Below, in pieces: positions 1 through 14,387 of a stretch of DNA of 39,798 nt (positions within the stretch are counted from its first letter, which is position 1; each line of letters begins with the position of its first letter). Origin of the DNA: Candidatus Woesearchaeota archaeon (GTDB lineage Archaea; Nanobdellota; Nanobdellia; Woesearchaeales; GW2011-AR4); NCBI GenBank assembly GCA_016185805.1, contig JACPMW010000003.1:1-39798 (forward strand). The letters are read 5' to 3'. The notes beneath the pieces are model-generated. The model ran no database searches and had not been told where the DNA came from. It saw only the letters and a program-made list of their open reading frames with translations. Made by a program: the position numbers and the translations under genes.

Positions 1-1
1 T

Positions 2-241
2 TCTGAAATAGCCAAAATCTATTTGCAGATGAATGACAAGAACAGGGCAATAGAGTACTTCAAAAAAAGCATGAGGCAAAACCATGACAATCCTTCACCA
101 GCAAACAACTTGGCTGTTGTTTATATGTCAATAGGCAGGTTTAAACAGGCAAAAGAGCTGTTGGAAATGCAGTTAAAAAAATATCCAGAAAACAGGGCAT
201 TAAAGTACAATTATGAAGAGTGTATGAAGAATTTGAAATGA
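2..241 (+). CDS. TPR-repeat protein, C-terminal fragment (5' end outside window)
   Basis: The frame is open from base 2. The translation has TPR-like helical repeats (AIEYFKKS, NLAVVYMSIGRFKQAKELLE). Stop TGA at 239-241. Confidence 0.5.
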   Translation, partial: SEIAKIYLQMNDKNRAIEYFKKSMRQNHDNPSPANNLAVVYMSIGRFKQAKELLEMQLKKYPENRALKYNYEECMKNLK

Positions 242-721
242 CTATCTCCATTTAATCGAGCATCCTATTGCAGGCGTCAATTCCACAGCCACTTTCTGGT
301 TATGGATTAGTGCCTCTATTGCATTCCTCAAGTCTGTGGTCTGCACAGCCGCTGCATCCTTTGGGGAGTTGTCAATCCTGCCGTGATATCTCAAAGTCCT
401 GTGCCCGTCAAAGACAAAGCATTCGGGAGTGCACTGGGCCCCATAGGCATTTGCAACTTTCTGGTCTTCGTCCCTCAAATATGGGAAATTGTGCTTTTGC
501 ATCTTGCTGTATTCAACCATCTTGTCAAAGCTGTCTTCAGGATAATTAACTTCATCATTTGAATTGATTCCCACGACTTGCACGCCCTTAATTCCGTACT
601 CATCCTGTATGGCCTTTATCCTCTCAATGCTTCCCTGAACATAAGGGCAGTGGTTGCACATAAATACAAAAACAAGAATTTCAGCTTCTGGTTCTGCATG
701 TTCGTTTCCATGAAAATCACC
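242..721 (-). pseudogene. Thioredoxin-fold protein (TlpA/AhpC-like, CNHCP active site), apparently 5'-truncated
   Basis: The translation has FMCNHCPYV, GINSND, YPEDS, CTPECFVF and GCSIKW. The only start codon is the Met directly before the CxxC (661). The frame stays open 20 more codons upstream (GDFHGNEHAEPEAEILVFVF, still homologous-looking) and then hits TAA at 722-724 with no start. Confidence 0.5.
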
Positions 722-774
722 TTAACGAAATATTAATATTTTGATTTATTAAAATATTGCGGTTATAAGTATAA

Positions 775-960
775 TGCCGGTGAGGAGATTTGAACTCCCG
801 ACTTATGCCTTTCAGGATGTTGCCTTATGAGAGCATCACTCTAATTGCCACAACCTTTTGCGAAAAGCTTGACCAAAAGCGTTCCAGTGGGATATTCAGG
901 TGAAATCCCACGACATCTGTAGTCCTCTTGCAAAAGGCTACCAGGCTGAGTTACACCGGC
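775..960 (-). tRNA. tRNA(CAU) (elongator Met or Ile2) with two introns: about 97 nt in the D-loop and about 15 nt in the anticodon loop
   Basis: Minus-strand read: GCCGGTG-TA-ACTC-AGCCTGGTA-[97 nt]-GAGT-G-ATGCT-CTCATAA-[15 nt]-GGCAT-AAGTC-GGGAG-TTCAAAT-CTCCT-CACCGGC-A. It has a 7-bp acceptor and a 74-nt mature cloverleaf, with the anticodon at 829-827. Exon blocks are 960-939, 841-825 and 809-775; intron borders are good to within a few nt. Confidence 0.8.
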
Positions 961-1001
961 TTGATTCCGAGAATAAGATAATGTTTTATAAAAGTTGCTA
1001 A

Positions 1002-1409
1002 TCAAATAAACTTCCTTATCTTGTCAGCATATTCTTTCAGTTCATCATTTTCATACTTGAGATGGCTCCACTTGATTCTTAGCCTGTCTTTATGGAATCT
1101 GGGGATTACATGGATATGGGAATGGTTCACAACCTGGCCTGCCTCCTTGCCGTTGTTCATTACAATGTTAAACGCTGCTCCGAGGCTTAATGACAATGCC
1201 TTAGCCACCTTTTTGGCAGCTTTTATAATTGCAGCCAGGTCCTCGTCGCTTATCTCCGCCAGAGTTTCGGAGTGTTTTTTCGGCACGATAAGGCAGTGCC
1301 CTTTGTTGGCCGGCATTATGTCAAGAAAGCTAATCACCTTTTCGTCCTCATAGACTTTGGCAGCCGGTATCTTTCCATCAACAATCTTGCAGAATATGCA
1401 GTTTTCCAT
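1002..1409 (-). CDS. HIT-family (histidine triad) nucleotide hydrolase
   Basis: 135 aa. Starts CIFCKI and carries the HxHxHxx motif NHSHIHVIPR. Confidence 0.85.
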   Translation of the reverse strand: MENCIFCKIVDGKIPAAKVYEDEKVISFLDIMPANKGHCLIVPKKHSETLAEISDEDLAAIIKAAKKVAKALSLSLGAAFNIVMNNGKEAGQVVNHSHIHVIPRFHKDRLRIKWSHLKYENDELKEYADKIRKFI

Positions 1410-1468
1410 ATTTGCCTGTCAACCCATAGTCATATTTATTGCTTTTGATTACTGAGGAGGCTGGCTAA

Positions 1469-2308
1469 CTACATTATTTGCAGGCTGTCTATCGGGCTTT
1501 TTGTGCCAATCATTTTGGGAGATGCAATATGAAGATATACCATTGTTGTTTCTGCGCTGCTGTGCCCGAGCAATGACTGGACTTCTGCAACGCTGCTTCC
1601 GTTCTCTATAAGGTGGGTTGAAAAGCTGTGCCGCAAAGTGTGCGGATGGGCATGCTTGGATAATTTGGCATGTTTCCGTGCATTTTTTATTACGGATCTT
1701 ACGGACGCTGTTGTAAGGTGGCCATTAAATCCCCTGAAAATATAAGAATCAGGTGACGTGCATTCTTTTGAAATGTATGAAGCTAGCTCTTCCTTGATGC
1801 TCTCTGCTATGACAAACATCCTGTCCTTGTTGCCCTTGCCGTGCCTCACCCACCCATAGCCATTTTTGATGTCAAGATTTTCCGGCTTAAGGTGAACAAG
1901 CTCGCTTACCCTTAGCCCGGCAGAATACATCAGCTTTGCCATAAGCTTGTGCTTAGGATTGCTTATTGAATTTATCAGCCTTGCAATTTCTTCTTTGGTT
2001 AAAACTATTGGCAGTGATTTAGGGGTTTTTGAGTATCTTATATTGACCATTAACCGCCGGTTTAAGACACTGCCATAAAAAAACTTCAATGCGTTTAAGT
2101 TCACATTAATTGTGTTGCCGCATGTGCCTTTCCCAATCATGATGTCAAGGTAGGACTTGACATCGGCTTTCTTGATTTCATTTGGCTCTTTTTTGCACCA
2201 ATTGAAGAATTTTCTGACGCAATACCTGTAAGTCCTTATTGTTTTGTGGCTTAATCCCCTTCTGAGCCCTTCTTTCCTTATTAATTCCGGAATGTCCATT
2301 TTAATCAC
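1469..2308 (-). CDS. xerA: Xer-type tyrosine site-specific recombinase
   Basis: 279 aa with the full R-K-H-R-H-Y catalytic set (GLRVSE, HGKGNKDR, HTLRHSF, LGHSS, MVYLH). There are 59 residues between KDR and HTLRH. The start is GTG 2308 or ATG 2299. Confidence 0.8.
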   Translation of the reverse strand: MIKMDIPELIRKEGLRRGLSHKTIRTYRYCVRKFFNWCKKEPNEIKKADVKSYLDIMIGKGTCGNTINVNLNALKFFYGSVLNRRLMVNIRYSKTPKSLPIVLTKEEIARLINSISNPKHKLMAKLMYSAGLRVSELVHLKPENLDIKNGYGWVRHGKGNKDRMFVIAESIKEELASYISKECTSPDSYIFRGFNGHLTTASVRSVIKNARKHAKLSKHAHPHTLRHSFSTHLIENGSSVAEVQSLLGHSSAETTMVYLHIASPKMIGTKSPIDSLQIM

Positions 2309-2330
2309 ATTAATCCATGATGCATCTAAG

Positions 2331-2369
2331 GTTTAAATAATTCACGCGAAGATGTCCAGTGTCCAGTGG
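2331..2369 (-). promoter_or_regulatory. Promoter-proximal element copy A: two CTGGACA units plus a TATA-like box, upstream of the recombinase gene
   Basis: The reverse complement reads CCACTGGACACTGGACATCTTCGCGTGAATTATTTAAAC. The TATA-like box (2340-2331) lies 23-32 nt from the recombinase start codons. Two similar copies sit at 14759-14797 and 23010-23041. Confidence 0.45.
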
Positions 2370-2471
2370 TTATTTACGATATTGAAAAGAATTGATATCA
2401 GCCAATTTCCCAACTCCGCAATGAATACAGAAAAACAGGTTATGGCCAATCAAATCCAAGGCATTTAAGCC

Positions 2472-2506
2472 CTATAACCCTAAAATCTAAAGACTTTAGG
2501 TTATAT
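2472..2506. repeat. Imperfect inverted repeat CTATAACC(C)TAAA / TTTAGGTTATAT with one extrahelical C
   Basis: Read directly: 2472-2484 pairs with 2495-2506. It is followed by a second GTTATAAG unit at 2510-2517. Confidence 0.5.
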
Positions 2507-2810
2507 ACCGTTATAAGCCACCTTATCATCGATAACCTCCTCAAAATTTCTCGATGAAAATTCTAAAAACCATCAAAGCTTTTTAGAACTAAAGATTTTT
2601 TCAGGCAAAAAAATCGCATAAAATTATCAACAGTTATGATTATCTTAGAAAATATTAAATAGTTCTAATGTTTTTATTATAATTTATGTGGAGATTAGGC
2701 TTATAGCCCTTATAGCTTGCCTTACTCCATTGGTTCTCCATAAGTTCTTTGAATTTATGGTGAACATGAAAATGGAAACAAAAATCATTACAGCTGGAGT
2801 GACCCTGGCC

Positions 2811-2898
2811 GTGGAGACTCTGATGTAGTGAGGCAGCAATAATCTATAAGTTGAAATTCACGGTCAAGGGTTTGGGGGTTCAAATCCCCCTCTCCACT
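2811..2898 (+). tRNA. tRNA-like gene or pseudo-tRNA, class-II-like, best fold gives anticodon CUA
   Basis: Perfect 7-bp acceptor (GTGGAGA / TCTCCAC) and a canonical T-arm (GGGGG-TTCAAAT-CCCCC). The long variable region can form a 6-bp stem (AAATTC / GGGTTT). The anticodon stem CAATA/AGTTG has one A-A mismatch, its loop is ATCTATA, there is no nt 26 and the D-stem is weak. Confidence 0.35.
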
Positions 2899-2984
2899 CT
2901 TTGTAGAATGTAAATTGTTGATAATTTTCTGTTTTCTTCGAGAAATCAAGGGATAAATCCGAAAATGCTAATTGTTACTGCCTT

Positions 2985-3051
2985 CGTTTAACGCCATAAA
3001 GAAAAACTAAAGACGACAAAATTGAAAACTTTGTCTAACAAGCGTTAAACG
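2985..3051 (+). repeat. Junction J0: 10-bp inverted repeat enclosing a bulged hairpin and core site TGTCTAA|CAAGCG|TTAAACG (3032-3051)
   Basis: CGTTTAACGC (2985-2994) pairs with GCGTTAAACG (3042-3051). The inner stem is AGAC(GAC)AAA / TTTGTCT. The core matches the J1-J5 pattern. Confidence 0.55.
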
Positions 3052-3143
3052 GTTCGCTTACGCTCTCCCAAATTTTTGATTACTTTGAACGGGGGGGTTT
3101 CTAGAAAACTTTATAATCTTGCTTATAAGCACTATAGGTCAAT

Positions 3144-4718
3144 ATGGTAAATTGTGCAAAATGTGGAGAGAAAATAGGATTATTTCAAAAAAAATATGAT
3201 TATGAGAATAAGCACGGAAATACTATAAAGTATTGCTCAAAATGTAATGAAGAATATAAAAAACAAGAAGCTGAAACGAAACGAAAGAAAATCGAAAAAC
3301 AAAAATTAGAAGAGCAAAAAGCACAGGAAAAATATTCACAGGAAATTTCTGAGATTTGTAAAAAATATTTAACAACTAAAGATTATGATTTCAGAGGAAT
3401 AATCTCGGGAATATACAAAAATAAAGAATTATATGGGCTAGTTGAGAAGGAAGATATAGATTTCTTAAAACAACAGTTTATAAAATTGTATCAAAAAACT
3501 CAAGAAAGTTCTCCTTCAAGTTCTAAGGAATATGACGAAGTGATGTCTTTAGAGAACACCTATAATAATGCCTTGCAATTTATTCAGGACTTAGAAAAGG
3601 TTAAGAAAATATCAGAAAAAAAAGGAATTAAATCAGACTATATCAAAATAATCAAACTCATGGCAGATATTGTGAATGAAGATGAGAAAAAAAGGAGGGA
3701 AAAAATTGCAGTTGCTGCGTACCAACGGATTTCTAAAATTACGAGTGATAAAAAACAAATAATTAAGGAATTTCTCAAAATCCTCCAACCGGAAGATGAA
3801 ATGACTATTGAATTTTTATTTGATAAATTTGGGCTTTCTTACACTCATGAGGAAGTAACGAAACTACTAACAGAATGTATTGAAGACGCAGAAATTGAAG
3901 ATTTTGAAGAAAATATTGGTACAACACAAAAAAAACAAATAGGGGATTTTGAAAATCTTAGTGGACATCAATTTGAAAATTACCTAAAAGAAATTTTCTC
4001 TATTTTTGGCTATCAGGTTATTAGAACAAAACTAAGTGGCGACCAAGGGGCAGATTTAATTATAAAGAAGAACAACGAAAAAACCGTTGTTCAAGCAAAA
4101 AAGTATTCTGGTGATGTAACTAATAAAGCCGTCCAAGAAGTTGTTGCATCAAAAGAGCATTATGGTGCAAATAAAGCAATGGTTGTAACTACTGGAAATT
4201 TTACTAAAAGTGCCATTGAATTAGCAAGAAGCAATAAGGTTGAGCTTTGGGATAAAAATAAACTTAAGAATGTAGTATCGGAAATTAATAGTTCTTTGGG
4301 CACGAAGAAGGGATCACATACTCAAACCATGAGTTTAGACAGGGATTTTTTAGACAAGGATTCATTCCCAATAGTTTGTCCCTTATGCAGTTCAGAAATT
4401 GGAGATTCTTTAGATGGTTGCCCTAGAAAAAATGAAGTTCAAGAACTGTGTTGTCTTAAATGTACGGGTAGACTGACAATAAGTCTACCAGAAGAAGCTT
4501 ATTCTTGTCTAGGTTGCAAGCAAACATTTGACACAGTTAAAGAAAGGATTGAGCACTCAAAGTCATGCAAAAAACTGAAAGAAAGAGAGTTTAAATGCAA
4601 GTCCTGCCAAAAAGAATTTACTTTGGATGACTCGGAGTTTACTGAACTAAAAATAAAAGGAAAAATAAATATTGAATGCCCAAAATGTAAAAAAGACAAC
4701 TCTGTAGGTATTAAGTAA
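3144..4718 (+). CDS. Multidomain protein: N-terminal zinc ribbon, coiled coil, Mrr-like restriction-endonuclease catalytic domain, C-terminal cluster of zinc ribbons and C2H2-like fingers
   Basis: N-terminus has CAKCG...CSKCN. The Mrr-cat-like block reads GHQFENYLKEIFSIFGYQV...GDQGADLII...VVQAKKY...AMVVTTGNFTKSA. The C-terminus has CPLCS, CLKC, CLGCKQTFDTVKERIEHSKSC, CKSC and CPKC. Confidence 0.6.
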   Translation: MVNCAKCGEKIGLFQKKYDYENKHGNTIKYCSKCNEEYKKQEAETKRKKIEKQKLEEQKAQEKYSQEISEICKKYLTTKDYDFRGIISGIYKNKELYGLVEKEDIDFLKQQFIKLYQKTQESSPSSSKEYDEVMSLENTYNNALQFIQDLEKVKKISEKKGIKSDYIKIIKLMADIVNEDEKKRREKIAVAAYQRISKITSDKKQIIKEFLKILQPEDEMTIEFLFDKFGLSYTHEEVTKLLTECIEDAEIEDFEENIGTTQKKQIGDFENLSGHQFENYLKEIFSIFGYQVIRTKLSGDQGADLIIKKNNEKTVVQAKKYSGDVTNKAVQEVVASKEHYGANKAMVVTTGNFTKSAIELARSNKVELWDKNKLKNVVSEINSSLGTKKGSHTQTMSLDRDFLDKDSFPIVCPLCSSEIGDSLDGCPRKNEVQELCCLKCTGRLTISLPEEAYSCLGCKQTFDTVKERIEHSKSCKKLKEREFKCKSCQKEFTLDDSEFTELKIKGKINIECPKCKKDNSVGIK

Positions 4719-4736
4719 ATATGAAACTTATTAAAC

Positions 4737-5216
4737 ATGGACGAAAATCAAGAAAAAGCAAATAAAATTTTATGGGAATACCTACATCAAAATAAAAAAC
4801 CTATCAAATTAGATAGTAATGCAATGAAAATATTGGATATTGCTGAGAGTAATCATGAATATTATGAGTATATTCCTGATAAACTTTTTAGTTTATTACT
4901 TGAAAAAGATATAAAAATTGAAAAATTAGATTCGGAATTTAAACACTTATTCGAAAAAGAGCGAAAGTCAAATTATATTTCTGGATGGAAATCTATCTTA
5001 ATTCAAAAAGAAGTACATGCTAAGTTTCTAATAGCTCAATTTATCCATGAATACGCGCATCATAAATTTAAGATTGGTGAATGGAATAAAGATAATTATA
5101 AGCATCCTAAAACTCCTGGTGAGAGTAAAGAAGAGGATACTTGTAACATATTGAGTTGTGAATACGCTGAAATGAATGGATTTGGTAAGGAATATTCTAA
5201 ATTGATAGGACTTTAG
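4737..5216 (+). CDS. Hypothetical protein with HExxH motif (possible ImmA/IrrE-like zinc peptidase)
   Basis: 159 aa. FIHEYAHHKF contains HEYAH. It starts 19 nt after the Mrr-like gene on the same strand. Confidence 0.3.
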   Translation: MDENQEKANKILWEYLHQNKKPIKLDSNAMKILDIAESNHEYYEYIPDKLFSLLLEKDIKIEKLDSEFKHLFEKERKSNYISGWKSILIQKEVHAKFLIAQFIHEYAHHKFKIGEWNKDNYKHPKTPGESKEEDTCNILSCEYAEMNGFGKEYSKLIGL

Positions 5217-5394
5217 AGATAACTTATTTTTCTTAATGTAATGCTTCGCTCATTTGATAAAATGGAACTCCCCCAGTCCTGCGGACATATACTCTGCTTA
5301 CGCAGAAATCTATTATAACTAAAGTAATCAAAAACTACGGCAGTAACGCATTTTCGGTGGCTTAAAAACACCGCTCGGCATCAAAGCCTCGCTA

Positions 5395-5414
5395 CGTATA
5401 ACAAGAATTAAAAT
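5395..5414 (+). repeat. Junction core J1: CGTATAA|CAAGAA|TTAAAAT
   Basis: Read directly. It is preceded by stems CTGCG/CGCAG (5279-5305) and CGGTG/CACCG (5355-5373). Confidence 0.55.
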
Positions 5415-5444
5415 CAATTGAGAAAAATCCCCCTATTGCCCACA

Positions 5445-6020
5445 CTACTTAATACTTCTTAAGATATTTAATAGAATTTCTCCAACCTTAACATAATCAA
5501 TCATTCCACTTCTTGACATCTTTACACCGTGTACTGCTTTATTTCGAACTTTAGAGAGATAATCACTCATAGCTCTAATACTAATTAGTTTTTCACCATC
5601 CACCTTTTTCTTTTTCAATAATCTCTGTAATTCATTCTCAATCAAGAATGATAATTTAATTATGGAGTAATTGTAATCTTTAAAATTCAATTGATTATCT
5701 AATTCTTTCTTTATCTTTTCTTCATTAATTTTAAGTTTTTTTACTTTTGATTTATATTTAGATAATTGGTTCTTTAGTTCTTCTATTTCTTTTCTCCTTC
5801 TTTTCATTGCCCTACCATATAAAGAGAATTGCATGGCAAGAATTAATCCTAACATAACGGGGATAATTATCTCAAAAATTGACGTTGCTGGCATTACAAA
5901 CTCAATCTTTTTATCAAAAAGAAAAACAAAAATTAAAATGGAGTAAATTATTATAGTTATAGGTAGTACTATGATTAAAAATTCTTTCTTTTTCATTATA
6001 AATCTTGGGAAGGAAATCAT
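5445..6020 (-). CDS. Membrane-anchored coiled-coil protein with a C-terminal region resembling DUF4145 (RNKAVHG)
   Basis: 191 aa with two or three N-terminal hydrophobic helices and a K/E-rich coiled coil. The C-terminus reads LSKVRNKAVHG. Confidence 0.35.
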   Translation of the reverse strand: MISFPRFIMKKKEFLIIVLPITIIIYSILIFVFLFDKKIEFVMPATSIFEIIIPVMLGLILAMQFSLYGRAMKRRRKEIEELKNQLSKYKSKVKKLKINEEKIKKELDNQLNFKDYNYSIIKLSFLIENELQRLLKKKKVDGEKLISIRAMSDYLSKVRNKAVHGVKMSRSGMIDYVKVGEILLNILRSIK

Positions 6021-6223
6021 TGTTCTCCTCCCCCTTCAAATTGTTCCATTTTTTTGCCTGCTTCAATCCCTCCTAATCCAATAATTGTTGAATAGATTAT
6101 GAAATAAAACATTTCTGGTAAGGTTTCATGCATTACAAGAGCGACAGCTTGAAGTATAACGAAACAGACAACGGTGATTCCAATAATCCATGCTGAGGCT
6201 GATGAACTTATGTATGGTGCCAT
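6017..6223 (-). CDS. Small two-TM membrane protein, translationally coupled to the downstream gene
   Basis: 68 aa and hydrophobic. Its stop overlaps the next start (ATGA at 6017-6020 on the minus strand). Confidence 0.4.
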   Translation of the reverse strand: MAPYISSSASAWIIGITVVCFVILQAVALVMHETLPEMFYFIIYSTIIGLGGIEAGKKMEQFEGGGEQ

Positions 6224-6295
6224 TTATAAACTAAATATTTAATGTTCTATATAAATATGTTGGATGTGGGCTTATGTAGGGGATTTTTCTCAACT

Positions 6296-6354
6296 CTGCG
6301 GACGCAGGTTTCCAGAACTTTGTAACTGGAAACGATTTTAACAAGGGTTATACG
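6296..6354 (+). repeat. Junction J2: palindrome, 8-bp hairpin and core ATTTTAA|CAAGGG|TTATACG (6335-6354)
   Basis: Palindrome CTGCG-GA-CGCAG at 6296-6307. Hairpin GTTTCCAG-AACTTTGTAA-CTGGAAAC at 6308-6333. Confidence 0.6.
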
Positions 6355-6415
6355 CAATTTTTGCGAACGCCTAAACGAGATAGGGCTTTGGCATTAGCGA
6401 TTAAGAATATAGAAG

Positions 6416-6802
6416 TCAGTGAACTCTCTCTTCTAATAAACGTTGAGATATTTCTCCTGGTGCTTGGTAATAAAGAGTCACTTGAGTACTCACAAAAACG
6501 TCTGTCCTCTTTATGCGAACACCATTATCAAATTCTGTTGTGGTATCCTTAACTGGAATAGGGAAACCTTGACTGGGAGTTGGTTGTCGTTTTGTGTATC
6601 CTGTGATTCTACAACCAATTGGGTAAATAGTATAATCACCTTCTCCACCATGTATAAACAATTTCGCTTTGTCTGGCACTATACCAGTTAGTTCTATACC
6701 TTCTATAAGCTCTGTAATCTCCTTGAACTCACGCATAGATTGTCCTACATCAACTACCCTCCTTACAAAAGGGACGCTTTCAGTTACTCTAATGGTATTC
6801 AT
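6416..6802 (-). CDS. Hypothetical protein (cassette 3 cargo)
   Basis: 128-aa ORF with no recognisable motif. It is flanked by two perfect 14-bp inverted repeat pairs. Confidence 0.4.
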   Translation of the reverse strand: MNTIRVTESVPFVRRVVDVGQSMREFKEITELIEGIELTGIVPDKAKLFIHGGEGDYTIYPIGCRITGYTKRQPTPSQGFPIPVKDTTTEFDNGVRIKRTDVFVSTQVTLYYQAPGEISQRLLEERVH

Positions 6803-6952
6803 TTGTTGTTCAAGATATAGAACAAAGAAGTGTTTATAAAATTATGCCAAAGCCCTAGAATATTGTCTTGATGTATCGCTTCGCTCTTTTGATAGACGGC
6901 GTTCGCAAAAACTTTGCTTTGCAACCCCATTGCATTCTCCTTTCAGTCGGGG

Positions 6953-6972
6953 CGTATAACAGGAATTAAATG
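6953..6972 (+). repeat. Junction core J3: CGTATAA|CAGGAA|TTAAATG
   Basis: Read directly. It is preceded by small stems TTGC/GCAA and CCCC/GGGG (6925-6952). Confidence 0.55.
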
Positions 6973-7034
6973 CAATTAAATTTAAGTTTCCAATGATAGG
7001 GGAATTCTCTCTGATTTGTAAATAGCTAACAAAA

Positions 7035-7592
7035 ATGGAAAGAGTTATTAATAAAGAAATTAATATTAAGGAATTAATGAATAAAATTAAAAACAATTTA
7101 ATGTATTTAGGCTTTGCTTTTTTTGTTAGTTATGCTGCTGCATCCCCACAATTGGTGTATCCGGGTGGTGAAATCATAAGCAATTTTTATTTTGTTTTTG
7201 TTATAATATTTATTTTTTCTTTTTTAGCTATAAGATTTATTATTTTAAATAAAGACCTACCAATAGGACAAAATAAAATCTTAAAAATTACTTCTGCCAC
7301 ATCTTTTGTTTTTACATTATTTTTTATTTATCTCACTTATACTGAAAATACAAGCATACACATCCTAATAGGAACAAAAAATTTAGGCAACATAAATGGA
7401 TTTTACATATTAGCAACATTCATTTTAATTATAATGATTCATATTATCTTAAATTTACAAAAACACATCAAATTATCCAAAATTTTACCGTGTCTATACC
7501 CTTACTTCAAAATGTTTGGTTTGTCTATCATATTACTATTTATTAATATAATAGTATACACAATACTATCGTTTAGTATTTATTGTTGTTAA
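7035..7592 (+). CDS. Polytopic membrane protein (cassette 4 cargo)
   Basis: 185 aa, very AT-rich, with about five hydrophobic helices. Confidence 0.45.
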   Translation: MERVINKEINIKELMNKIKNNLMYLGFAFFVSYAAASPQLVYPGGEIISNFYFVFVIIFIFSFLAIRFIILNKDLPIGQNKILKITSATSFVFTLFFIYLTYTENTSIHILIGTKNLGNINGFYILATFILIIMIHIILNLQKHIKLSKILPCLYPYFKMFGLSIILLFINIIVYTILSFSIYCC

Positions 7593-7676
7593 TACTCCTA
7601 GATTAACTATCTAAAATATCACAAGAATTTTATAAACAGCAAAATTTATAAACTAGCACCCCCATAATCCAATATT

Positions 7677-7826
7677 ATGAAAACAGTAACCATATCAGAA
7701 TTAGAATACAAAACCCTGAAAAAGAAAGCTGAGTTGGATGAAGACTTATTAATGAAACTAATAAGGGGTCTGGAAGATATAAAAGCAGGAAGAATAAAGC
7801 CTTGGAAAAGCAAGTTTACCGATTAA
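7677..7826 (+). CDS. Small ORF (49 aa), possible antitoxin partner of the RelE-like gene
   Basis: Translation: MKTVTISELEYKTLKKKAELDEDLLMKLIRGLEDIKAGRIKPWKSKFTD. It is not in the ORF track (under 60 aa). It converges on the toxin gene with an 11-nt 3' overlap. Confidence 0.35.
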   Translation: MKTVTISELEYKTLKKKAELDEDLLMKLIRGLEDIKAGRIKPWKSKFTD

Positions 7827-8127
7827 GTTTTTTTCTTATTTCTTCCTTGTAATAAGGCATTAAGAGCTTTATTTTGTCAATTGCTTTCTGCTGGTCTTTT
7901 TTGCCGCTTATTGCAACAACAAACACAACTACATATTCATCATAAATCAAATAATAAAAGCGGTAATTTCTTACTTTCTTCTCCCTCAAAAATTTATAGC
8001 CTAGTGGCTTGCCAACATGAGGATTTGATTCTAACTGCTTAATTTCATTGTCAATCATTCTTTGAATAGAAGTGTCTAACTTTTCAAAATCTTTATCAAA
8101 TTCCTCAGTTGTAAATATCCTAAACAT
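7816..8127 (-). CDS. RelE/ParE-family toxin
   Basis: The pattern FRIFTTEEFDKDFEKL...IKQLESNPHVGKPLGYKFLREKKVRNYRFYYLIYDEYVVVFVVAISGKKD is typical of RelE/ParE. The ATG at 8127 is preferred over the track's TTG at 8145. Confidence 0.7.
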   Translation of the reverse strand: MFRIFTTEEFDKDFEKLDTSIQRMIDNEIKQLESNPHVGKPLGYKFLREKKVRNYRFYYLIYDEYVVVFVVAISGKKDQQKAIDKIKLLMPYYKEEIRKKLNR

Positions 8128-8249
8128 AAAAACAATAACAACCAATGCCTATTTAAACATTTGTTTTGAATTATATAATTGACTAAGAGAGAATTCCCTA
8201 AACTATAGTCTCGCTACGCTCGAATTTATTGGGAAACTTAAATTTAACT

Positions 8250-8309
8250 TTGCGGAACGCAACTTTTGAGAACTTCGTAGCTCAAAAGGCATTTAACAAG
8301 GGTTAAACT
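8250..8309 (+). repeat. Junction J4: palindrome, 8-bp hairpin and core CATTTAA|CAAGGG|TTAAACT (8290-8309)
   Basis: Palindrome TTGCG-GAA-CGCAA at 8250-8262. Hairpin CTTTTGAG-AACTTCGTAG-CTCAAAAG at 8263-8288. Confidence 0.6.
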
Positions 8310-8451
8310 CAATAATTTTTAGTGGCTAAACATAGATAGGGGGACATTTCTAACGACTAAAAAGAACTGTGGGTTTGAAATGAAAGTGAAAAACATCTGA
8401 TTGAAAACTAGAAAAATATTTAAAGTTGTTAAATCTAATAATAGCGAGATT

Positions 8452-9762
8452 ATGAAAAAAGAGGCATTAATCACTTTAATAATATTTTTTGCTATTTTCA
8501 TTTCTGGCTGCGGCTCTGGGCCGGGTGCCTTGCCTGCAGCACTGTCAGGGAAGGATTATTCTTATGATATACCTGCTCCATCTGGAGGCAAAGGGCCATT
8601 CAGTTGTGTTGCAACGCCTGATTCAGTGATTCCAACAGGCCTTAGTTTCAATGGATGCACTTTAACTGGAACTGCTCCAACACTTTTAGGAGTATCTGAG
8701 AAAGTATTTTCCTTTAAGTTCTCTATTACGGGTGCTGATGGAAAGTCCTATGGGCCTTTTGATGCTACACTGCCGGTTAGTGTAGGCCCTCCTGAATTTT
8801 TACCACCAGAATTGCCAGAAGCTGGTGTTGGCCAGGCGTATTCATTCAGTTTCTGCGATAATCCTACCGCATTAGATTGTGTAAGCAGTTCTTCAATTTC
8901 AGGCGGCGCTGGCGCTCCTTATACTTTCTCTGCTACTGGCCTGCCGCTGGGGATTTTCCTCAGCCCTAATGGGGAGTTAAGCGGAAAGATACCAGAAGAG
9001 GCGCAAGAAGGAGACAAAACATTCAATGTATGTGTGATAGACTCGGCACGTGTTGAAGACTGCAAGGATGTTAAGCTTAACATGAAGAAAAATGTTGCAC
9101 TGGGATACAAATTAAGCCTGAAATCAAGATTAGACTATAGTGGCGAAGTGGTTAACTTTAATTTTTGCGGCGGGTCTGCTAGGGAAAAGGGATCACTAAC
9201 GTGGGAAATCGATAATGTTGTAACACTTACACAGCCATATGCAGGAGGCTATTTCACTTCAGATGAATATGATGCAAAGGTAGATGAGTACGGCTACACC
9301 AGTGCAGATAATTTTAGGCATTTGCAAGTGCCTGTGAAAGCATCTGGCAGCGCTTCAACTTCACATGATTTCTGCGGTCGCAGCCAAATTGAATGCAAGG
9401 CAGATTCTTTCAGCGCTAGTTATGACCTTAAAATCCCAATAGAACTTAAATTAGACGAGTCGGGGCTTAGTGTATATATTGACTATGCGTATATCAAAGA
9501 TAATCCTGATCTTGAAGCAGGAGATATATCCAAACTGAATTGCGATAGTCCAGGTGCTTCAGAGTACATCCTTAAAAAAATGGCAATAGGATCACCTTTT
9601 GTCCGCGAGGGCGGTTATAGAAAGGCAGTTTTCGATACCAATGGTGGCACACTGACAGGGCAATACGAAGATAACAACCCTTACACTTATGCTTTTGGCG
9701 CAGCTCCAGGAAGAACATCAAGGCAACTGGCATGGTCGCTAACCGTGGAGCGGGTTAAGTAA
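8452..9762 (+). CDS. Secreted lipoprotein with putative Ig-like repeats (cassette 5 cargo)
   Basis: The ATG at 8452 gives MKKEALITLIIFFAIFISGCGSG, a signal peptide with a lipobox Cys. Repeated motifs PTGLSFNGCTLTGTAP and GLPLGIFLSPNGELSGKIP follow. The track start at 8401 is a TTG. Confidence 0.6.
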   Translation: MKKEALITLIIFFAIFISGCGSGPGALPAALSGKDYSYDIPAPSGGKGPFSCVATPDSVIPTGLSFNGCTLTGTAPTLLGVSEKVFSFKFSITGADGKSYGPFDATLPVSVGPPEFLPPELPEAGVGQAYSFSFCDNPTALDCVSSSSISGGAGAPYTFSATGLPLGIFLSPNGELSGKIPEEAQEGDKTFNVCVIDSARVEDCKDVKLNMKKNVALGYKLSLKSRLDYSGEVVNFNFCGGSAREKGSLTWEIDNVVTLTQPYAGGYFTSDEYDAKVDEYGYTSADNFRHLQVPVKASGSASTSHDFCGRSQIECKADSFSASYDLKIPIELKLDESGLSVYIDYAYIKDNPDLEAGDISKLNCDSPGASEYILKKMAIGSPFVREGGYRKAVFDTNGGTLTGQYEDNNPYTYAFGAAPGRTSRQLAWSLTVERVK

Positions 9763-9991
9763 GCACTGGCAGATTTTTAATTCTCAACATAATGTTTATA
9801 TAAACACCTTTTTTCTCTTTCTATATTTACAACAGAAGCTCGCCAGGAATTGAAAAAGCAGGGATAGCAAATGGACAAACACCCGCCCCCTACAACTAAC
9901 TAACGACTAAATTACGAAATGTTCCCCTTGATACTTGTTCTTTATTGCTCACCTTGTTCGCCTGATTGAACACGAGCCACTAAAAATTACT

Positions 9992-10050
9992 TTGCGGACG
10001 CAATTTTCCCACACTTGCGTATGGGAAAAGGATTTAACAGGAATTAAAAT
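9992..10050 (+). repeat. Junction J5: palindrome, 8-bp hairpin and core GATTTAA|CAGGAA|TTAAAAT (10031-10050)
   Basis: Palindrome TTGCG-GA-CGCAA at 9992-10003. Hairpin TTTTCCCA-CACTTGCGTA-TGGGAAAA at 10004-10029. The right side AATTAAAATCAATT is identical to J1. Confidence 0.6.
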
Positions 10051-10061
10051 CAATTTTCTAC

Positions 10062-10475
10062 TTATTGCTTCGGAGGCTCAATACCGAGCTGTTTCCACAA
10101 GCTTAAATTGTCCTCAATGCCCCAGCGCTCGATTATTTTGTTGTTTTTAATGCGTATGATGTCCATCACTGACATGGAAATCTTTTTCCCCGTTGGACTA
10201 ATTCCCATAAATTCCCCTTTCTGCGTGCCGCTAAACACGAATCTGGTTGCGACCTTGTCATTTTCGGCAATCATGTCCTCGATTTTTATCCTGGCATCCG
10301 GGAATGTTTTTCGTAATTCTTTAAAAGAATTCCTTATTTCATCAATTCCTGCCTCTTTTCCGTAAAAGCTGCGGTCGACAAAGTTTTCATCAAAAATTTC
10401 ATCTATAGCGGACAAATTGCCCTTGTTAAATACCTCCTCATAAAAGCGATGCATCAGTTCCTTATTCTTTTCCAT
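10062..10475 (-). CDS. SnoaL-like (ester/polyketide cyclase fold) protein
   Basis: 137 aa. N-terminus reads NKELMHRFYEEVFNKGNLSAIDEIFDENFVD and the C-terminus reads IIERWGIEDNLSLWKQLG. Confidence 0.65.
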   Translation of the reverse strand: MEKNKELMHRFYEEVFNKGNLSAIDEIFDENFVDRSFYGKEAGIDEIRNSFKELRKTFPDARIKIEDMIAENDKVATRFVFSGTQKGEFMGISPTGKKISMSVMDIIRIKNNKIIERWGIEDNLSLWKQLGIEPPKQ

Positions 10476-10476
10476 T

Positions 10477-11282
10477 TTAAACCTCGAAATATTTTATATC
10501 TAAATTTTCAACATCAATAATGGCACAATTCACTTTGTCTTCGGGATAGCTGCTTCCAACATTGATGCATATCGTATTTCCAATCTTGTCTTTCCATGAG
10601 CCGCTCATCTGCGGGCTTTCATGTATGTGCCCGTGCAGCGTTAAAAATGGCTGCTCTTTCTCTATGAAATTTTCACTGACTTGCTTCCGACATGGTTGTT
10701 TTTTAATGTTATATCCAGATTCGTGTTATAAGGTGGTGCATGAATCACATAAATTGTCTTTTTTGGATTGCTTAATTTTTTCAGATTATTCAAATCCTCC
10801 TCAATTGTTCCGCTCTCTTTTTCAGCGCTTCTTATCTCTTCACTAAACAATTGCAGCGGCCCTTTATCATTTTCAAAATCGGGCTTTTCCCAGTCTTTCA
10901 GCCTGAATGGGGTTGGATTGACAAAACTATATCCTGCAATGTTGATATTTTTATTGAATTTCATTGATTTATTATGTATTGATTTCAAGATTCTTGAATC
11001 CTCCAGCACATTGAGGTTTGCCTTGAAATCATCATTGCCCATTATTGCATAGATTTCAGTGTTTTTATTCTTTTCCTTGAACTTCTTGAACAATGGTAGC
11101 ATGATGTTTTCAATGAACTTTTTTTGGATTTTGACTCTTTCTTCAACAGAATTTCCTCCTTTCGGGCATAAGTCACCGCCAATGACAACAGCGCTGCATT
11201 TTTCATCCTCAGCTTTCTTCAACAATCTTCTGTAGAATTCCTCGTTTCCATGAAGGTCTGCTGAGTAGATTAGCTTGAACAT
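10477..11282 (-). pseudogene. Metallophosphoesterase interrupted by a 1-nt frameshift in a homopolymer
   Basis: The N-terminal part carries YSADLHGN, VIGGDL and GNDD and ends at TAG 10662-10664. The C-terminal part (ENFIEKEQPFLTLHGHIHE...DIKYFEV, stop 10477-10479) continues in another frame. One extra A in the A4 run (plus-strand T run 10670-10673) restores the frame. Confidence 0.7.
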
Positions 11283-11284
11283 TT

Positions 11285-11881
11285 TTAAAATTTAATAAAC
11301 TTTTTAAAATCAGATTTTAATTGCTTACTGTTTTTGAAGACAATTCCTGCCATGCCGACTGATTTAGCTACATCAACAAAGTCTTTTACATCATCAATAA
11401 AAATGCATTCTTTTGGCTTGACTTTAAGTTTTTTTGCAGCAAGAAAGAAGATTTTTTTATTGTTCTTAGTCAGACCTACTTTATGCGATAAAATTACTGC
11501 ATCAAAAAGATTGTAGGTGCCTCTTTTTTTGTTAATTTTTTCATGATATGCTATCGAGTTAGATACGATTCCTATTTTATATTTCTTTTTTAATTTTTGA
11601 GCTATAGCAAGAACATCATGCTTTACCTTCGTCAAATTCTCATAACCCAGTCTCCATAGATTTTTGGGGATTTTTTTAATATCTTTTTTATTTAATTTTG
11701 CTATTCTCTTCCAAAAAACTTTTTCAGAGATTAAGTTTTTGCACAAAGGAATTGCTTCTATATTTATTTCACGCCAAAATTTCTTCTTATTTTTGGGCCT
11801 GAATATTTTATTCAATCTTTCAAACCAAAGCCTCTGGTCAACAATAACACCGCCGCTGTCAAATAGAATTGCTTTTATCAT
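11285..11881 (-). CDS. HAD-superfamily hydrolase
   Basis: The start at ATG 11881 gives MIKAILFDSGGVIV. A later block reads FIDDVKDFVDVAKSVGMAGIVF. The longer track ORF runs into the tRNA-Ala gene. Confidence 0.6.
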   Translation of the reverse strand: MIKAILFDSGGVIVDQRLWFERLNKIFRPKNKKKFWREINIEAIPLCKNLISEKVFWKRIAKLNKKDIKKIPKNLWRLGYENLTKVKHDVLAIAQKLKKKYKIGIVSNSIAYHEKINKKRGTYNLFDAVILSHKVGLTKNNKKIFFLAAKKLKVKPKECIFIDDVKDFVDVAKSVGMAGIVFKNSKQLKSDFKKFIKF

Positions 11882-11895
11882 TTTTAATAAAAAAA

Positions 11896-12002
11896 TGGAC
11901 CGGCCGAGACTTGCAATGCGAAGCGCTGCCCGCTTTCCGCAATTTGAACTCGGAGCCTCACCCATGCCATGGGCGCATTATGCCAGGTTTAACTACCGGC
12001 CC
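11896..12002 (-). tRNA. tRNA-Ala(GGC) with a 33-nt intron at the T-loop/T-stem boundary
   Basis: Minus-strand read: GGGCCGG-TA-GTTA-AACCTGGCA-TAAT-G-CGCCC-ATGGCAT-GGGTG-AGGCT-CCGAG-TTCAAAT-[33 nt]-CTCGG-CCGGTCC-A. The G3:U70 pair is present. The intron is about 11941-11909. Confidence 0.85.
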
Positions 12003-12082
12003 ATTAATTTGCAAGAAATCATGATGGTTTAAAAGATTTTCTTAAAAAACATCAAAACAGCTTAAGATTAAAAAATTTCAAT

Positions 12083-12300
12083 CCCGAGAGCGACTTCTGA
12101 AAGTATTGGAGTTTGAAGTGAACCGCTTTTGATTTCATTATTAAATAAATAGGCGAGGCCCGACATGCGAGTGAGCTTCGTTTCACTCGCTCATATTCCA
12201 CTCGATTTGGCAATAGGGGCAGTGGCATAAGCGAGCGAAAGGCGAGCTTTCGCATCTCACTCGAGCACAAATTATTGTGAGTGAAGAACAGATTGAAGAA
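12083..12300 (+). ncRNA. Structured intergenic element, copy 1 of 3 (candidate ncRNA)
   Basis: The 5' hairpin is GAGAGCG-ACTTC...GAAGT-GAAC-CGCTTTT followed by a T-run. GC-rich hairpins follow: GCGAGTGA/TCACTCGC (12167-12190) and GCGAAAG/CTTTCGC (12235-12253). It shares sequence blocks with 28187-28358. Confidence 0.5.
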
Positions 12301-12320
12301 TGAGATTTAACAAAAAAATC

Positions 12321-12536
12321 TTAATTCTTTGCAGCGAGCTTTACATCCCCCTCATGTATCGTCTTTCTTCCTGCGTGCTTTGATATATCTGCCGCTTTCT
12401 TGGAGATCTTTAATGCAATGTCTGTCAATACTTCGGCAAAAGCATCAACTCCATCCTGTGAAACTCTTTTAGCCCCTGCCTTGACAAGGATTCTTGCGAC
12501 AGATGCCTTGGGTATTGTAGAAGTTTTTCTTCCCAT
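12321..12536 (-). CDS. Archaeal histone (HMf-like histone fold)
   Basis: 71 aa. Blocks PKASVARILVKAGAKRVSQDGVDAFAEVL and HAGRKTIHEGDVKLA. Confidence 0.85.
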   Translation of the reverse strand: MGRKTSTIPKASVARILVKAGAKRVSQDGVDAFAEVLTDIALKISKKAADISKHAGRKTIHEGDVKLAAKN

Positions 12537-12579
12537 CGAAAATCACGATTTTCGGGGTTTCGGAAATCTTTGATTTCCG
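12537..12579. promoter_or_regulatory. Two related 8-bp-arm palindromes immediately upstream of the histone start codon
   Basis: CGAAAATC-AC-GATTTTCG at 12537-12554 and CGGAAATC-TTT-GATTTCCG at 12561-12579. Confidence 0.4.
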
Positions 12580-12701
12580 CAACCATAAATCCCCATTAAT
12601 TAAGATATAAGGGAGAAAATTCAAGAAGAACCCCTTAGTCTTTGTGTATCCCTGAAACCTAACATAAGTTATTTAAATAACTTTCGATTTTAGGAATTTT
12701 C

Positions 12702-14387
12702 ATGGATGAGCTTCTCAAAACCGCTATAAAGAAGTATGCCCTGCAGAATGCTGTAAGATACAAGGGCAAGGCCAATCCTGGCGCGGTCATAGGCAAGGTA
12801 CTGGCTGAGAACCCTAGATTGAGGGAAAATGCAAAGGAGATAAGCAGTGAAGCCTTAAAGGTGGTGAAAGAAATCAACAAGCTGCCTTTGGAGAAGCAGG
12901 AGAAAAAGCTTCAGGAATTGGCTCCAGAACTGCTGGAAAAGAAGGAAAAGGCAGAAAAAGACATCTTTGAGTTCCTTAACATAAGGGAAGGGCAAAAAGT
13001 CATAACAGCATTTCCACCAGAGCCGAGCAAATATCCCCACATTGGGCATGCAAAAGCAATTATTGTTAACTATGAGCTTGCAAAGCGCCATAACGGCACA
13101 TTCTATCTTAGATTTGAAGACACAAACCCGGAGCTGGCTGATGATGAATTCTATAGGATTCATCTTGACAACTACAAATGGCTGGGGATAGTTCCGGATA
13201 AGATTGACTATGCATCGGACTTCATGGAAGAGTTCTACAGATACGCTGAGAAGATTATCAATGAAAACCACGCTTATGTGTGCAGCTGCAAGCAGGAAAC
13301 TATCAAGGAAAACAGGAAAAATGGCACAGAATGCGAGCACAGGTACAGGCAGCCTGATAAAAATCTTGAGCTTTGGCAGCAGATGCCCAAGGCAAAAGCC
13401 GGAAAATATGTATTGAGGCTGAAGGGCCATATGCAAAGCCCCAACTCCACATTAAGGGACCCTGTCATCTTCAGGGTTGTTGATGAAAGCCACCCCAGAA
13501 AAAAGAAAAAGTACAGGCTCTGGCCAAATTATGACTTTGAAAGCGCGATAATGGATGGGATTGAGGGCATAACTCACAGATTGAGAAGCAAGGAATTCGA
13601 GCTTAGAAATGAGCTGCAGAGGCTCATACAAACGATGGCTGGATTTCCTGAAACCAATATTTACGAGTTTGCAAGGTTCAATCTTGAAGGCGTTGAAAGC
13701 TCTGGAAGGGTTATAAGGGAAAAAATGCAAAAAAAACAATTAATTGGGTGGGATGACCCATCATTGACGACAATAGTTGCGCTAAGAAGAAGGGGTTTTT
13801 TACCACAGGCAATAAAGGAATTCGTGCTTTCAACAGGATTGACAAAAACAGAGTCTGTATTGACTTGGGATGACTTGATAGTACACAATAGAAGGTTATT
13901 GGATGCAAAATGCAACAGGTATTTTTTTGTTGAAAATCCAAAGGAAATAAAGATAGAAAATGCGCCTGAACAATCTTGTGAATTGAAATTGCATCCTGAG
14001 TTCAAAGACAGGGGGGCAAGAAAATTCAAGACAAAAGACAGGTTCTATGTAGCTGAAAAGGATTTAAAGGAATTCAAGGAAGGCAAATTAATTAGATTGA
14101 TGGACTGCCTGAATTTTGCCAGGAAAAAAGGCAAGTTTGTTTTTGACTCTTTAGAATACGACAAATACAAAAAGCATGGCGACAAGATAATACATTGGCT
14201 GCCTGTGCAGAAAGGTTTAGTTAAAGTAGAAGTTTTGATGCCAGACAAGAAGACTGCAAAAGGATTGGCTGAGCCATTAGTGAAAAACTTGAAAGTTGGT
14301 GATATTGTCCAGTTCACAAGGTTTGGTTTTTGCAAACTGGACAGCAAAAAAGTTGATAAGCTGGTGTTTTGGTACACGCATGGTTAA
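12702..14387 (+). CDS. gltX: Glutamyl-tRNA synthetase, archaeal/eukaryal type
   Basis: 561 aa. The N-terminus KYALQNAVRYKGKANPGAVIGKVL is typical of archaeal GluRS. It has the HIGH motif PHIGHAKA, FYLRFEDTNP and LRSKEF. Confidence 0.9.
   Translation: MDELLKTAIKKYALQNAVRYKGKANPGAVIGKVLAENPRLRENAKEISSEALKVVKEINKLPLEKQEKKLQELAPELLEKKEKAEKDIFEFLNIREGQKVITAFPPEPSKYPHIGHAKAIIVNYELAKRHNGTFYLRFEDTNPELADDEFYRIHLDNYKWLGIVPDKIDYASDFMEEFYRYAEKIINENHAYVCSCKQETIKENRKNGTECEHRYRQPDKNLELWQQMPKAKAGKYVLRLKGHMQSPNSTLRDPVIFRVVDESHPRKKKKYRLWPNYDFESAIMDGIEGITHRLRSKEFELRNELQRLIQTMAGFPETNIYEFARFNLEGVESSGRVIREKMQKKQLIGWDDPSLTTIVALRRRGFLPQAIKEFVLSTGLTKTESVLTWDDLIVHNRRLLDAKCNRYFFVENPKEIKIENAPEQSCELKLHPEFKDRGARKFKTKDRFYVAEKDLKEFKEGKLIRLMDCLNFARKKGKFVFDSLEYDKYKKHGDKIIHWLPVQKGLVKVEVLMPDKKTAKGLAEPLVKNLKVGDIVQFTRFGFCKLDSKKVDKLVFWYTHG

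Follow-up and report, generated by a model that had tools for sequence, protein, structure and literature searches.

The window analysed here, a 39,798-bp stretch of DNA from a groundwater archaeon of the Woesearchaeota (DPANN), encodes a XerA-family tyrosine recombinase next to an array of accessory genes separated by short, directly repeated, dif-like sites. With a probability of roughly 0.8, this locus is a chromosomal platform for gene cassettes that resembles integrons in function but is assembled from different components. To our knowledge, integrons are the only dedicated cassette-capture platforms, with a single integrase clade and a single site design. The system in the window is rated as a cassette platform driven by a tyrosine recombinase, resembling integrons in its working and standing outside the integron family. 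The initial annotation of this DNA had proposed an undescribed, integron-like combination of a Xer-type recombinase with mobile cassettes at directly oriented dif-like cores, and this was borne out by the protein comparison, the loci of relatives and the literature. No description of Xer-linked cassette arrays in archaea was found in the open-access full-text literature searched, and the integron analogue is apparently real and undescribed.

The recombinase contains all catalytic residues (R133, K160, H223, R226, H249 and Y258) and the Pfam domains Phage_integrase (1.1e-39) and SAM_4. Placement among profiles of XerA and of integron integrases gave the top NCBIfam rank to the archaeal XerA equivalog XerA_Arch (NF040815; 218.8 bits, cut-off 220), and both integron-integrase models stayed below their cut-offs (TIGR02249, 189 versus 265 bits, with a match that falls in two stretches; PRK15417, 135 versus 435 bits). 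The best matches in the PDB, the XerA structures 5hxy from Thermoplasma and 4a8e from Pyrococcus, align with the protein end to end. In the alignment with IntI4 from Vibrio (2a3v), residues 17-179 and 185-274 of the recombinase correspond to IntI4 residues 16-181 and 231-318, and about 49 residues of IntI4 (182-230) have no counterpart. These are taken to be the integron-specific insert. The earlier description of a Xer-length enzyme with 59 residues between GKGNKDR and HTLRHS, too few for the integron segment, was correct. Judged from these alignments, the protein is XerA-like, lacks the insert of integron integrases and would fall outside the IntI clade, and in the PDB comparison it is about equally similar to IntI4 and XerA. 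Across the Woesearchaeota, homologues of about 276 aa span an unbroken range of identities from 93 down to 55%, and the close ones are labelled Woesearchaeota or Nanoarchaeota where the source gives a name. A second recombinase was not found in the window by tblastn, and look-ups with the 279-aa and 276-aa versions of the protein retrieved no exact record.

Six core sites, J0 to J5, had been proposed as separators of the gene blocks, and direct reading confirmed all six 20-mers (Table 1). The full core, which closes each cassette, consists of a 7-nt left arm, a 6-nt spacer and an 11-nt right arm (TTAWANNCAAT). The left arm keeps only its inner 5-7 nt, TWTAA(C), because a hairpin (hp2, described below) abuts it. 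The 16-nt pattern TWTAACARGNRTTAWA matches J1-J5 exactly, all on the plus strand between 5.4 and 10.05 kb, with neither a further match elsewhere in the 39.8-kb window nor any on the minus strand. The pattern is rare in shuffled DNA, as 100 dinucleotide shuffles gave an expectation of 0.01 for the 5 matches observed. J0 misses the strict pattern (TCTAA arm). A hidden Markov model (HMM) built from related sites recovers it weakly (E = 0.19) and marks only the six places J0-J5 within the window. J0 nonetheless acts as a junction, since the block just 3' of it pairs with a block near the far end of cassette 1, and it is a weaker but real copy of the site. The reading of the sites as direct repeats also held: J1-J5 are co-oriented, and so are the sites of all 36 contigs with at least two sites among the matches listed. 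The array of six sites was one short, as a seventh, recombinase-proximal attI-like site had been missed and the array starts before J0. A higher AT content of all five blocks had been noted as well. It applies to cassettes 1-4 (GC 0.22-0.38) and not to cassette 5 (GC 0.40-0.47).

Table 1 Features of the cassette platform in the window. Hyphens within cores separate left arm, spacer and right arm; ORF, open reading frame; hp1 and hp2, side hairpins
Feature	Position	Strand	Evidence	Paired ends and side hairpins
XerA-family tyrosine recombinase, 279 aa	1469-2308	-	Pfam, NCBIfam, PDB alignments, motifs	
Conserved leader, recombinase upstream region	2309-2510		alignment of upstream regions, blastn	
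attI-like insertion site	2473-2521	+	leader alignment, end complementarity, polymorphism in relatives	
Unit 0, gene-less	2511-3044	+	no ORF of note	
J0 core TGTCTAA-CAAGCG-TTAAACG; GTTC-type left-end module follows	3032-3051	+	direct reading, site HMM	
Cassette 1: Mrr-like nuclease with zinc ribbons (3144-4718), HExxH protein (4737-5216)	3045-5407	+	ORFs, Pfam	3073-3086/5321-5334
J1 core CGTATAA-CAAGAA-TTAAAAT	5395-5414	+	direct reading, exact pattern	
Cassette 2: two small membrane proteins, minus strand	5408-6347	+	ORFs, end pairing	5408-5415/6334-6341; 5418-5432/6279-6293; 5438-5444/6265-6271; hp1 6296-6307; hp2 6308-6333
J2 core ATTTTAA-CAAGGG-TTATACG	6335-6354	+	direct reading, exact pattern	
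Cassette 3: orphan 128-aa ORF, minus strand	6348-6965	+	end pairing, folding as single-stranded DNA	6348-6355/6952-6959; 6358-6371/6898-6911; 6381-6394/6844-6857
J3 core CGTATAA-CAGGAA-TTAAATG	6953-6972	+	direct reading, exact pattern	
Cassette 4: membrane protein, 49-aa ORF, ParE/RelE toxin	6966-8302	+	ORFs, Pfam, end pairing, folding	6966-6973/8289-8296; 6976-6991/8232-8247; 7000-7012/8186-8198; hp1 8250-8262; hp2 8263-8288
J4 core CATTTAA-CAAGGG-TTAAACT	8290-8309	+	direct reading, exact pattern	
Cassette 5: Ig-like (He_PIG) lipoprotein	8303-10043	+	Pfam, blastn, end pairing	8313-8327/9975-9989; hp1 9992-10003; hp2 10004-10029
J5 core GATTTAA-CAGGAA-TTAAAAT; last recognisable site	10031-10050	+	exact pattern, site HMM	

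The leader of about 200 bp located 5' of the recombinase gene is conserved in every related locus, and its conservation stops at the crossover. In blastn comparisons with relatives, similarity runs from 2309 to 2513-2518 and then stops; the leader motif and layout are also present in lineages whose recombinase is 61-63% identical. The leader contains the direct repeat TGTCCAGTGTCCAGTGG (2353-2369) immediately upstream of the start of the recombinase gene. It is kept down to 61% protein identity (L206-L209; L numbers denote loci of relatives or metagenomes compared with the window), with small changes in the 63% lineage, and may represent an operator or a recombinase-binding element. The conserved part ends abruptly with ...GGTTATATAC(T/C)G/TTAxxxxCAAT, equivalent to 2510/2511 in the window (final slash, crossover), and the end G/TTAxxxxCAAT was found in five lineages. 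The attI-like site itself comprises the inverted sequences TATAACC (2473-2479) and GGTTATA (2499-2505) around a small palindrome and, beyond the crossover, the right arm TTATAAG (2511-2517), followed by CCAC in the window where relatives have CAAT. The attI right arm together with the next 13 nt is complementary to the right end of the first cassette in L003 and L007. The array thus starts at 2510/2511, and 2511-3044 represents an extra, gene-less unit. Known attI sites lie beside the integrase gene and receive cassettes there, and both features recur here in the conserved leader end and in the cassette polymorphism at this point; the entry site can be regarded as analogous, not homologous, to them.

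At least 120 contigs from metagenomes contain the pattern of hairpin hp1 plus core. In relatives whose recombinases are 84-94% identical, the sites lie on the same side and strand as in the window, and with the region 2309-10100 they share the leader (2309-2515) and the site modules only; no cargo is common to the window and these relatives, even at 94% recombinase identity. Differences in cassette content, as predicted for a mobile array, were found between closely related loci. L003/L006 and L004/L005, from four samples, encode the same recombinase protein and differ by one 346-bp cassette exactly at attI, which holds a gene for a 69-aa zinc-ribbon protein. The junctions of this cassette read tatactg/TTAAATGCAATTG and AACAGCGA/TTAAATGCAATTG (= ...GGGGCATTTAACAGCGA/TTAAATGCAATTG), with no duplication beyond the sequence common to both partners. 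The marine loci L207 and L208 encode identical recombinase proteins, 61% identical to that of the window. The two loci are 100% identical to each other over 11,026 bp on one side and 1,772 bp on the other, and between attI and a downstream core L208 holds 645 bp (one cassette) and L207 8,028 bp. Their distal cassettes (HicAB and others) are shared, and the recombinase-proximal ones are replaced. In this pair as well as in L206/L209, divergence sets in exactly before TTA.

In both products of the polymorphic pairs the spacers remain with the left side. The exchange point is therefore the boundary between spacer and right arm, or it lies within the shared right arm, and by sequence it can be placed at the position that corresponds to G/TT in integrons (...N/TTAWANNCAAT). 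Under the conventional tyrosine-recombinase scheme, this would imply cleavage of the bottom strand by a monomer bound to the well-conserved right arm. With exchange at this boundary, a cassette would extend from TTAWANNCAAT and the left end through the cargo to the right end, hp1, hp2, the left arm and the spacer.

The position of the platform in the chromosome varies. It lies between a HIT gene and a tRNA-Met in the window and in L007, between FtsZ and SecE in L003-L006 and L001, and beside the SecY ribosomal operon in L002. The genes for FtsZ (20495-21643) and SecE (from 21693) are direct neighbours in the window, and no remnant of a site lies between them. The differing contexts reflect either a move of the platform itself or a rearrangement of the surrounding genome.

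The sites had been described as different from the attC hairpins of integrons. They are indeed no classical attC, but neither are they bare 20-bp cores, as each of them centres a split palindrome. The left arm of a site J(n) is complementary to the right arm of the preceding site J(n-1) and not to that of J(n) itself, perfectly (7/7) for J2, J3 and J4, and longer blocks inside the left end of a cassette pair with blocks located 45-190 nt before the right end of the same cassette. Joined in silico, the two ends form a cassette-specific imperfect palindrome of about 170-240 nt with the dif-like core at its centre. The core arms pair and are closed by the spacer; a middle stem of 13-16 bp, different in sequence in each cassette, and a distal stem of variable sequence plus GATAGGGG/CCCCTATC follow outwards. 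Two or three conserved side hairpins per element are located on one arm only, namely hp1 (TTGCG-GA-CGCAA or variants), the 8-bp hp2 and a further upstream hairpin, and the reverse complement of a left end reads like a right end with these hairpin modules inserted. Folded as single-stranded DNA, the joined ends of cassette 3 reach -38.1 kcal/mol (z = -6.96) and those of cassette 4 -42.4 kcal/mol (z = -10.5), whereas the contiguous genomic sequence at junction J3 shows no such folding (z = +0.17). Integration thus splits the palindrome and leaves one half at each end of the cassette.

The complementarity of cassette ends was quantified for non-redundant consecutive sites on contigs from metagenomes and relatives, with junctions obtained by anchored extraction. 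The mean duplex energy was -22.0 kcal/mol for the two ends of the same cassette, -13.9 kcal/mol across a junction and -14.3 kcal/mol for random pairs (same cassette versus across junction, Wilcoxon p = 3e-6). Beyond the first percentile of random pairs were 23 of 63 cassette pairs and 2 of 63 junction pairs. A threshold of 13 or more complementary positions out of 16 was reached by 22 of 58 cognate pairs, by none of 58 junction pairs and by 0.4% of non-cognate pairs. At all four outer positions, the left arm of J(n) agreed with the right arm of J(n-1) in 19 of 65 cases, compared with 2 of 65 for the arms within a junction. The 22 stems have 22 different sequences and consist almost purely of Watson-Crick pairs, with wobble pairs at 2 of 352 positions (plus strand). 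Hairpin hp2, which was not constrained by the search pattern, covaries: among 47 distinct sites, changes on both sides were observed for all 8 base pairs, with 97.9% of the cells paired, a score reached by none of 500 shuffles, and G-U wobbles account for about 2 of 376 cells.

The ends of the cassettes differ in type. Left ends, compared between window positions 3052-3072 and metagenome loci, are of two main classes. Those of the first continue with CAAT directly after the right arm, and those of the second with GTTC plus an inserted module GCTTACGCTC...TCCCAAAT, by which the stem is shifted about 20 nt. The hp1/hp2 region exists in at least three types, and loops of the type C(TTCG)G were seen by eye to recur in the side modules. 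The contig L087 (Ga0209211_10097757) contains an unsplit site at about position 1458 of its reverse complement, with flanks that are mutually complementary (duplex -37 kcal/mol; whole junction -77 kcal/mol with RNA parameters). It is located between the gene for a 173-aa protein and a DNA methyltransferase gene, with a UvrD-like fragment upstream, and this is how a circular or donor form, or else a tandem duplicate, should look. L191 and L093, with terminal repeats of 107 nt and 125 nt, were also considered as circles; the flanks of their sites are not complementary, and site modules shared by both contig ends are the likelier explanation.

Several features of the platform are those of integrons: a conserved insertion site by the recombinase gene with a divergently placed array of co-oriented sites between accessory genes, full turnover of cargo among close relatives while recombinase-distal cassettes are shared (L207/L208), sites that are conserved in structure above sequence, a crossover just 5' of TT, and a toxin-antitoxin cassette. 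The integron core-site consensus, RYYYAAC-N4-GTTRRRY, is readable in the array sites as well. A canonical integron with IntI, attI and attC in an archaeon, as described by Ghaly et al. 2022, would account for these features, for the 189 bits with TIGR02249 and for a C-terminal G-x-K-SPID tail that aligns with IntI4. It is nevertheless hardly credible here, as the IntI insert is absent from this XerA-like enzyme and both integrase models remain below their cut-offs. Moreover, the crossover lies in the middle of the palindrome, whose halves are divided between the two cassette ends, whereas the attC of integrons lies wholly at the 3' end, and the folded element of 170-240 nt is branched by hp1, hp2 and the further hairpin. 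The cassettes contain one to four genes in either orientation, which makes a single operon driven from Pc unlikely, and the host is a DPANN archaeon. The archaeal integrons of that study (PMC9668308) are described as carrying standard attC folds and an IntI that includes the additional domain; its supplementary text, as far as searched, mentions neither the site motifs nor the metagenome-assembled genomes related to the window. The imperfect terminal inverted repeats of about 45-50 bp on each unit could alternatively belong to tandem transposons similar to miniature inverted-repeat transposable elements, with the transposase encoded elsewhere and the recombinase as a bystander. This is very improbable. 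Beyond the 7-11-nt core the repeats are specific to the unit instead of family-wide, and since they differ in every unit one transposase could not recognise all of them. Target-site duplications are absent, and attI shows a conservative insertion. The asymmetric spacer and the side hairpins give every unit the same orientation, and in the relatives where both were recovered the arrays begin at the conserved site beside the recombinase gene.

A more serious rival, although still an unlikely one, is a housekeeping Xer system in which the enzyme is the only dimer resolvase of the cell, attI is the chromosomal dif beside its gene, and the cassettes are small, non-autonomous elements that piggy-back on it by serial insertion with the host enzyme, like integrative mobile elements exploiting Xer (IMEX). 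It overlaps with the cassette platform and differs in the main job of the enzyme and in the existence of a dedicated platform. The score just under the XerA equivalog cut-off, the XerA structures as best PDB matches and the 93-55% identity continuum of ~276-aa homologues in Woesearchaeota, as for a vertically inherited core gene, speak for it, and so does the lack of a second recombinase in the window. The 6-nt spacer and the dif-type right arm also agree with the XerA/dif systems of Pyrococcus abyssi and Thermoplasma acidophilum. The P. abyssi dif reads ATTGGATATAA TCGGCC TTATATCTAAA, with an ATTGNNTWTAA arm of which TTAWANNCAAT is the reverse complement, and most archaea have, as may be the case here, a single partnerless XerA (PMC2958812). 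Unlike one 28-bp dif of 11-6-11 design, however, seven direct-repeat sites lie within 7.6 kb, their left arm is conserved over the inner 5-7 nt only, they bound mobile cargo and they adjoin the recombinase gene; in Thermococcales dif is not adjacent to xerA, although the XerS/difSL site lies beside its own recombinase gene (PMC2958812). Three chromosomal contexts of the platform among close relatives are odd for a terminus-bound dif, the reading requires at least seven directly repeated active dif sites, and cassette-specific palindromes and side hairpins are superfluous for Xer/dif. IMEX proper (CTX-phi, TLC-phi, VGJ-phi and the gonococcal genetic island), like the elements at XerS/difSL and XerH/difH, share with the window dif-like mobile DNA at a Xer site in serial arrays. 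The archaeal units differ from them in being gene cassettes of 0.35-3.6 kb without replication or phage functions, each with a standardised, structured end pair. The pdif modules of Acinetobacter, which are shuffled between replicons, likewise hold accessory genes, including toxin-antitoxin genes, bounded by Xer-type 11-6-11 sites. They are flanked by inversely oriented XerC/D and XerD/C sites and reside on plasmids, whereas in the window and the 36 multi-site contigs all sites are direct, and the array is chromosomal, with a single recombinase and an attI-like entry point. Finally, the hairpins and long-range pairings might act in RNA, either in the processing or stabilisation of transcripts or as a structured RNA that assists recombination. 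The C(TTCG)G-type loops, the clean covariation of hp2 and the fact that the pairings also form in a read-through transcript are compatible with this reading, which is improbable in view of the near absence of G-U wobbles, unusual for selected RNA helices, of cargo genes on both strands and of the missing match to any Rfam family; the DNA polymorphism at the sites is explained without RNA. A telomere resolvase was rejected in view of the small size and Xer-like nature of the protein, and the direct orientation of the sites speaks against a shufflon or invertase.

Some observations weigh against the cassette platform as the preferred explanation. About 60% of the consecutive detected site pairs are without end complementarity at a fixed offset, perhaps because intermediate sites were missed or because stems are displaced at GTTC-type ends, and the ends of unit 0 showed no clear complementarity. 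The near-perfect Watson-Crick stems could originate from a copying process instead of selection for folding; likewise, the rarity of wobbles, which favours helices of DNA over those of RNA, would also be expected if copying maintained the stems. The same end modules can accompany different cargo: those of cassette 5 of the window flank other cargo in L014 and in L001, where it measures 3.6 kb and includes a Dam methylase, and in the reverse complement of L007 the same 103 bp (99%; 14882-14984 and 17208-17309) follow successive sites and are then succeeded by unrelated cargo. The end modules thus seem exchangeable relative to the cargo, which a simple history of one cassette with one site does not explain. 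Identical cargo in two different arrays was not found in an all-versus-all comparison of cassette interiors from a small sample, where only copies from the same population matched. In the folded form the core arms pair with each other and provide only one duplex arm, with which the assembly of a recombinase dimer or tetramer is not readily explained. The link between recombinase and sites, lastly, is drawn from their adjacency in several lineages.

Under the cassette-platform explanation, the XerA-family recombinase would act at the attI-like site and at the dif-like cassette cores, with strand exchange at the boundary between spacer and right arm. New cassettes would enter beside the recombinase gene and could leave as circles, the adjacent enzyme being the presumed catalyst of exchanges between attI and a cassette as well as between cassettes, with release of circles. 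In the excised form, the two cassette ends would be joined and restore the cassette-specific palindrome. Intrastrand pairing, either in a single strand at replication or uptake or in a cruciform, may unite the half-sites that flank one cassette, so that folded DNA would be the substrate, and the one-sided hairpins may mark one strand as the attC hairpin does in integrons. For comparison, the substrate of CTX-phi is a folded single strand. We propose tentatively, at slightly less than even odds, that a second kind of integron, built independently, exists in Woesearchaeota and probably in further DPANN archaea, with a XerA-derived enzyme and a "split attC", in which the pairing of ends selects the half-sites to be synapsed and the DNA itself addresses excision.

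If the platform is real, the strategy of cassette capture has evolved more than once, or integron integrases descend from such a system; as the enzyme is about equally similar to IntI4 and XerA, the system may show how integrases arose from Xer. It would also provide a mechanism of rapid gene turnover to symbiotic archaea with small genomes. Among the cargo across the arrays are nucleases, toxin-antitoxin pairs, methyltransferases and surface proteins. Because the recombinase is without the IntI domain required by IntegronFinder, such loci would not be recognised as complete integrons by current pipelines. The arrays would further explain breaks in assemblies, as many site-bearing contigs, including several of related genomes, end at or near a site. 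A compact recombinase of 279 aa with sequence-programmable pairing of ends might be of use as a tool.

Of the earlier assignments of cargo, the Mrr-like nuclease (Mrr_cat, 1.3e-30), the RelE toxin (ParE/RelE, 4.4e-07), the Ig-like lipoprotein (He_PIG, 9.4e-15) and the SnoaL-like flanking gene are supported by family matches; the HExxH protein and the membrane proteins had no family match. The 49-aa ORF of cassette 4, also without a family match, is a possible antitoxin. ORFs of the cargo lie on both strands between co-oriented sites, and their content varies between loci. Neither a tRNA (ARAGORN) nor an RNA family at gathering thresholds (Rfam) was detected. A permissive Rfam scan of positions 1-13000 returned a chance snoRNA match and a T-arm-like tRNA hairpin, GGGGGTTCAAATCCCCC, in unit 0 (2874-2890; partial match, E = 0.011), hence the site is not a known RNA family. 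Unit 0 is probably decayed. It also contains CGTTTAACGC (2986-2995) in inverted orientation to GCGTTAAACG (3043-3052), a 10-bp repeat that spans J0 and resembles the R''/R' pair of integrons. In L093, a comparable inverted pair downstream of a site may delimit a mini-cassette of about 80 nt without cargo.

The array is followed by a further variable stretch. Between J5 and the tRNA-Met (10044-11890) lie the SnoaL-like gene and, recognised by eye, a metallophosphoesterase-like gene that is seemingly split (10477-10608 and 10662-11282) and a HAD-like gene. L007 has unrelated ORFs at this position (two encoding about 185 aa, a third 233 aa), so this stretch is variable as well, though without a recognisable site. 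The tRNA-Met (CAT)-like sequence on the minus strand (11896-12003), 108 nt identical in L007, has an apparent insertion in the T-loop and was missed by ARAGORN and Rfam. Its 3' end faces the variable region, and in this lineage the recombinase and the array thus form a block between the HIT gene and the 3' end of the tRNA. Another tRNA-like sequence with a long insertion or intron, which was not called by ARAGORN or Rfam, is located on the minus strand at about 780-960; it starts with GCCGGTGTAACTCAGCC... and ends with ...GGGAGTTCAAATCTCCTCACCGGC.

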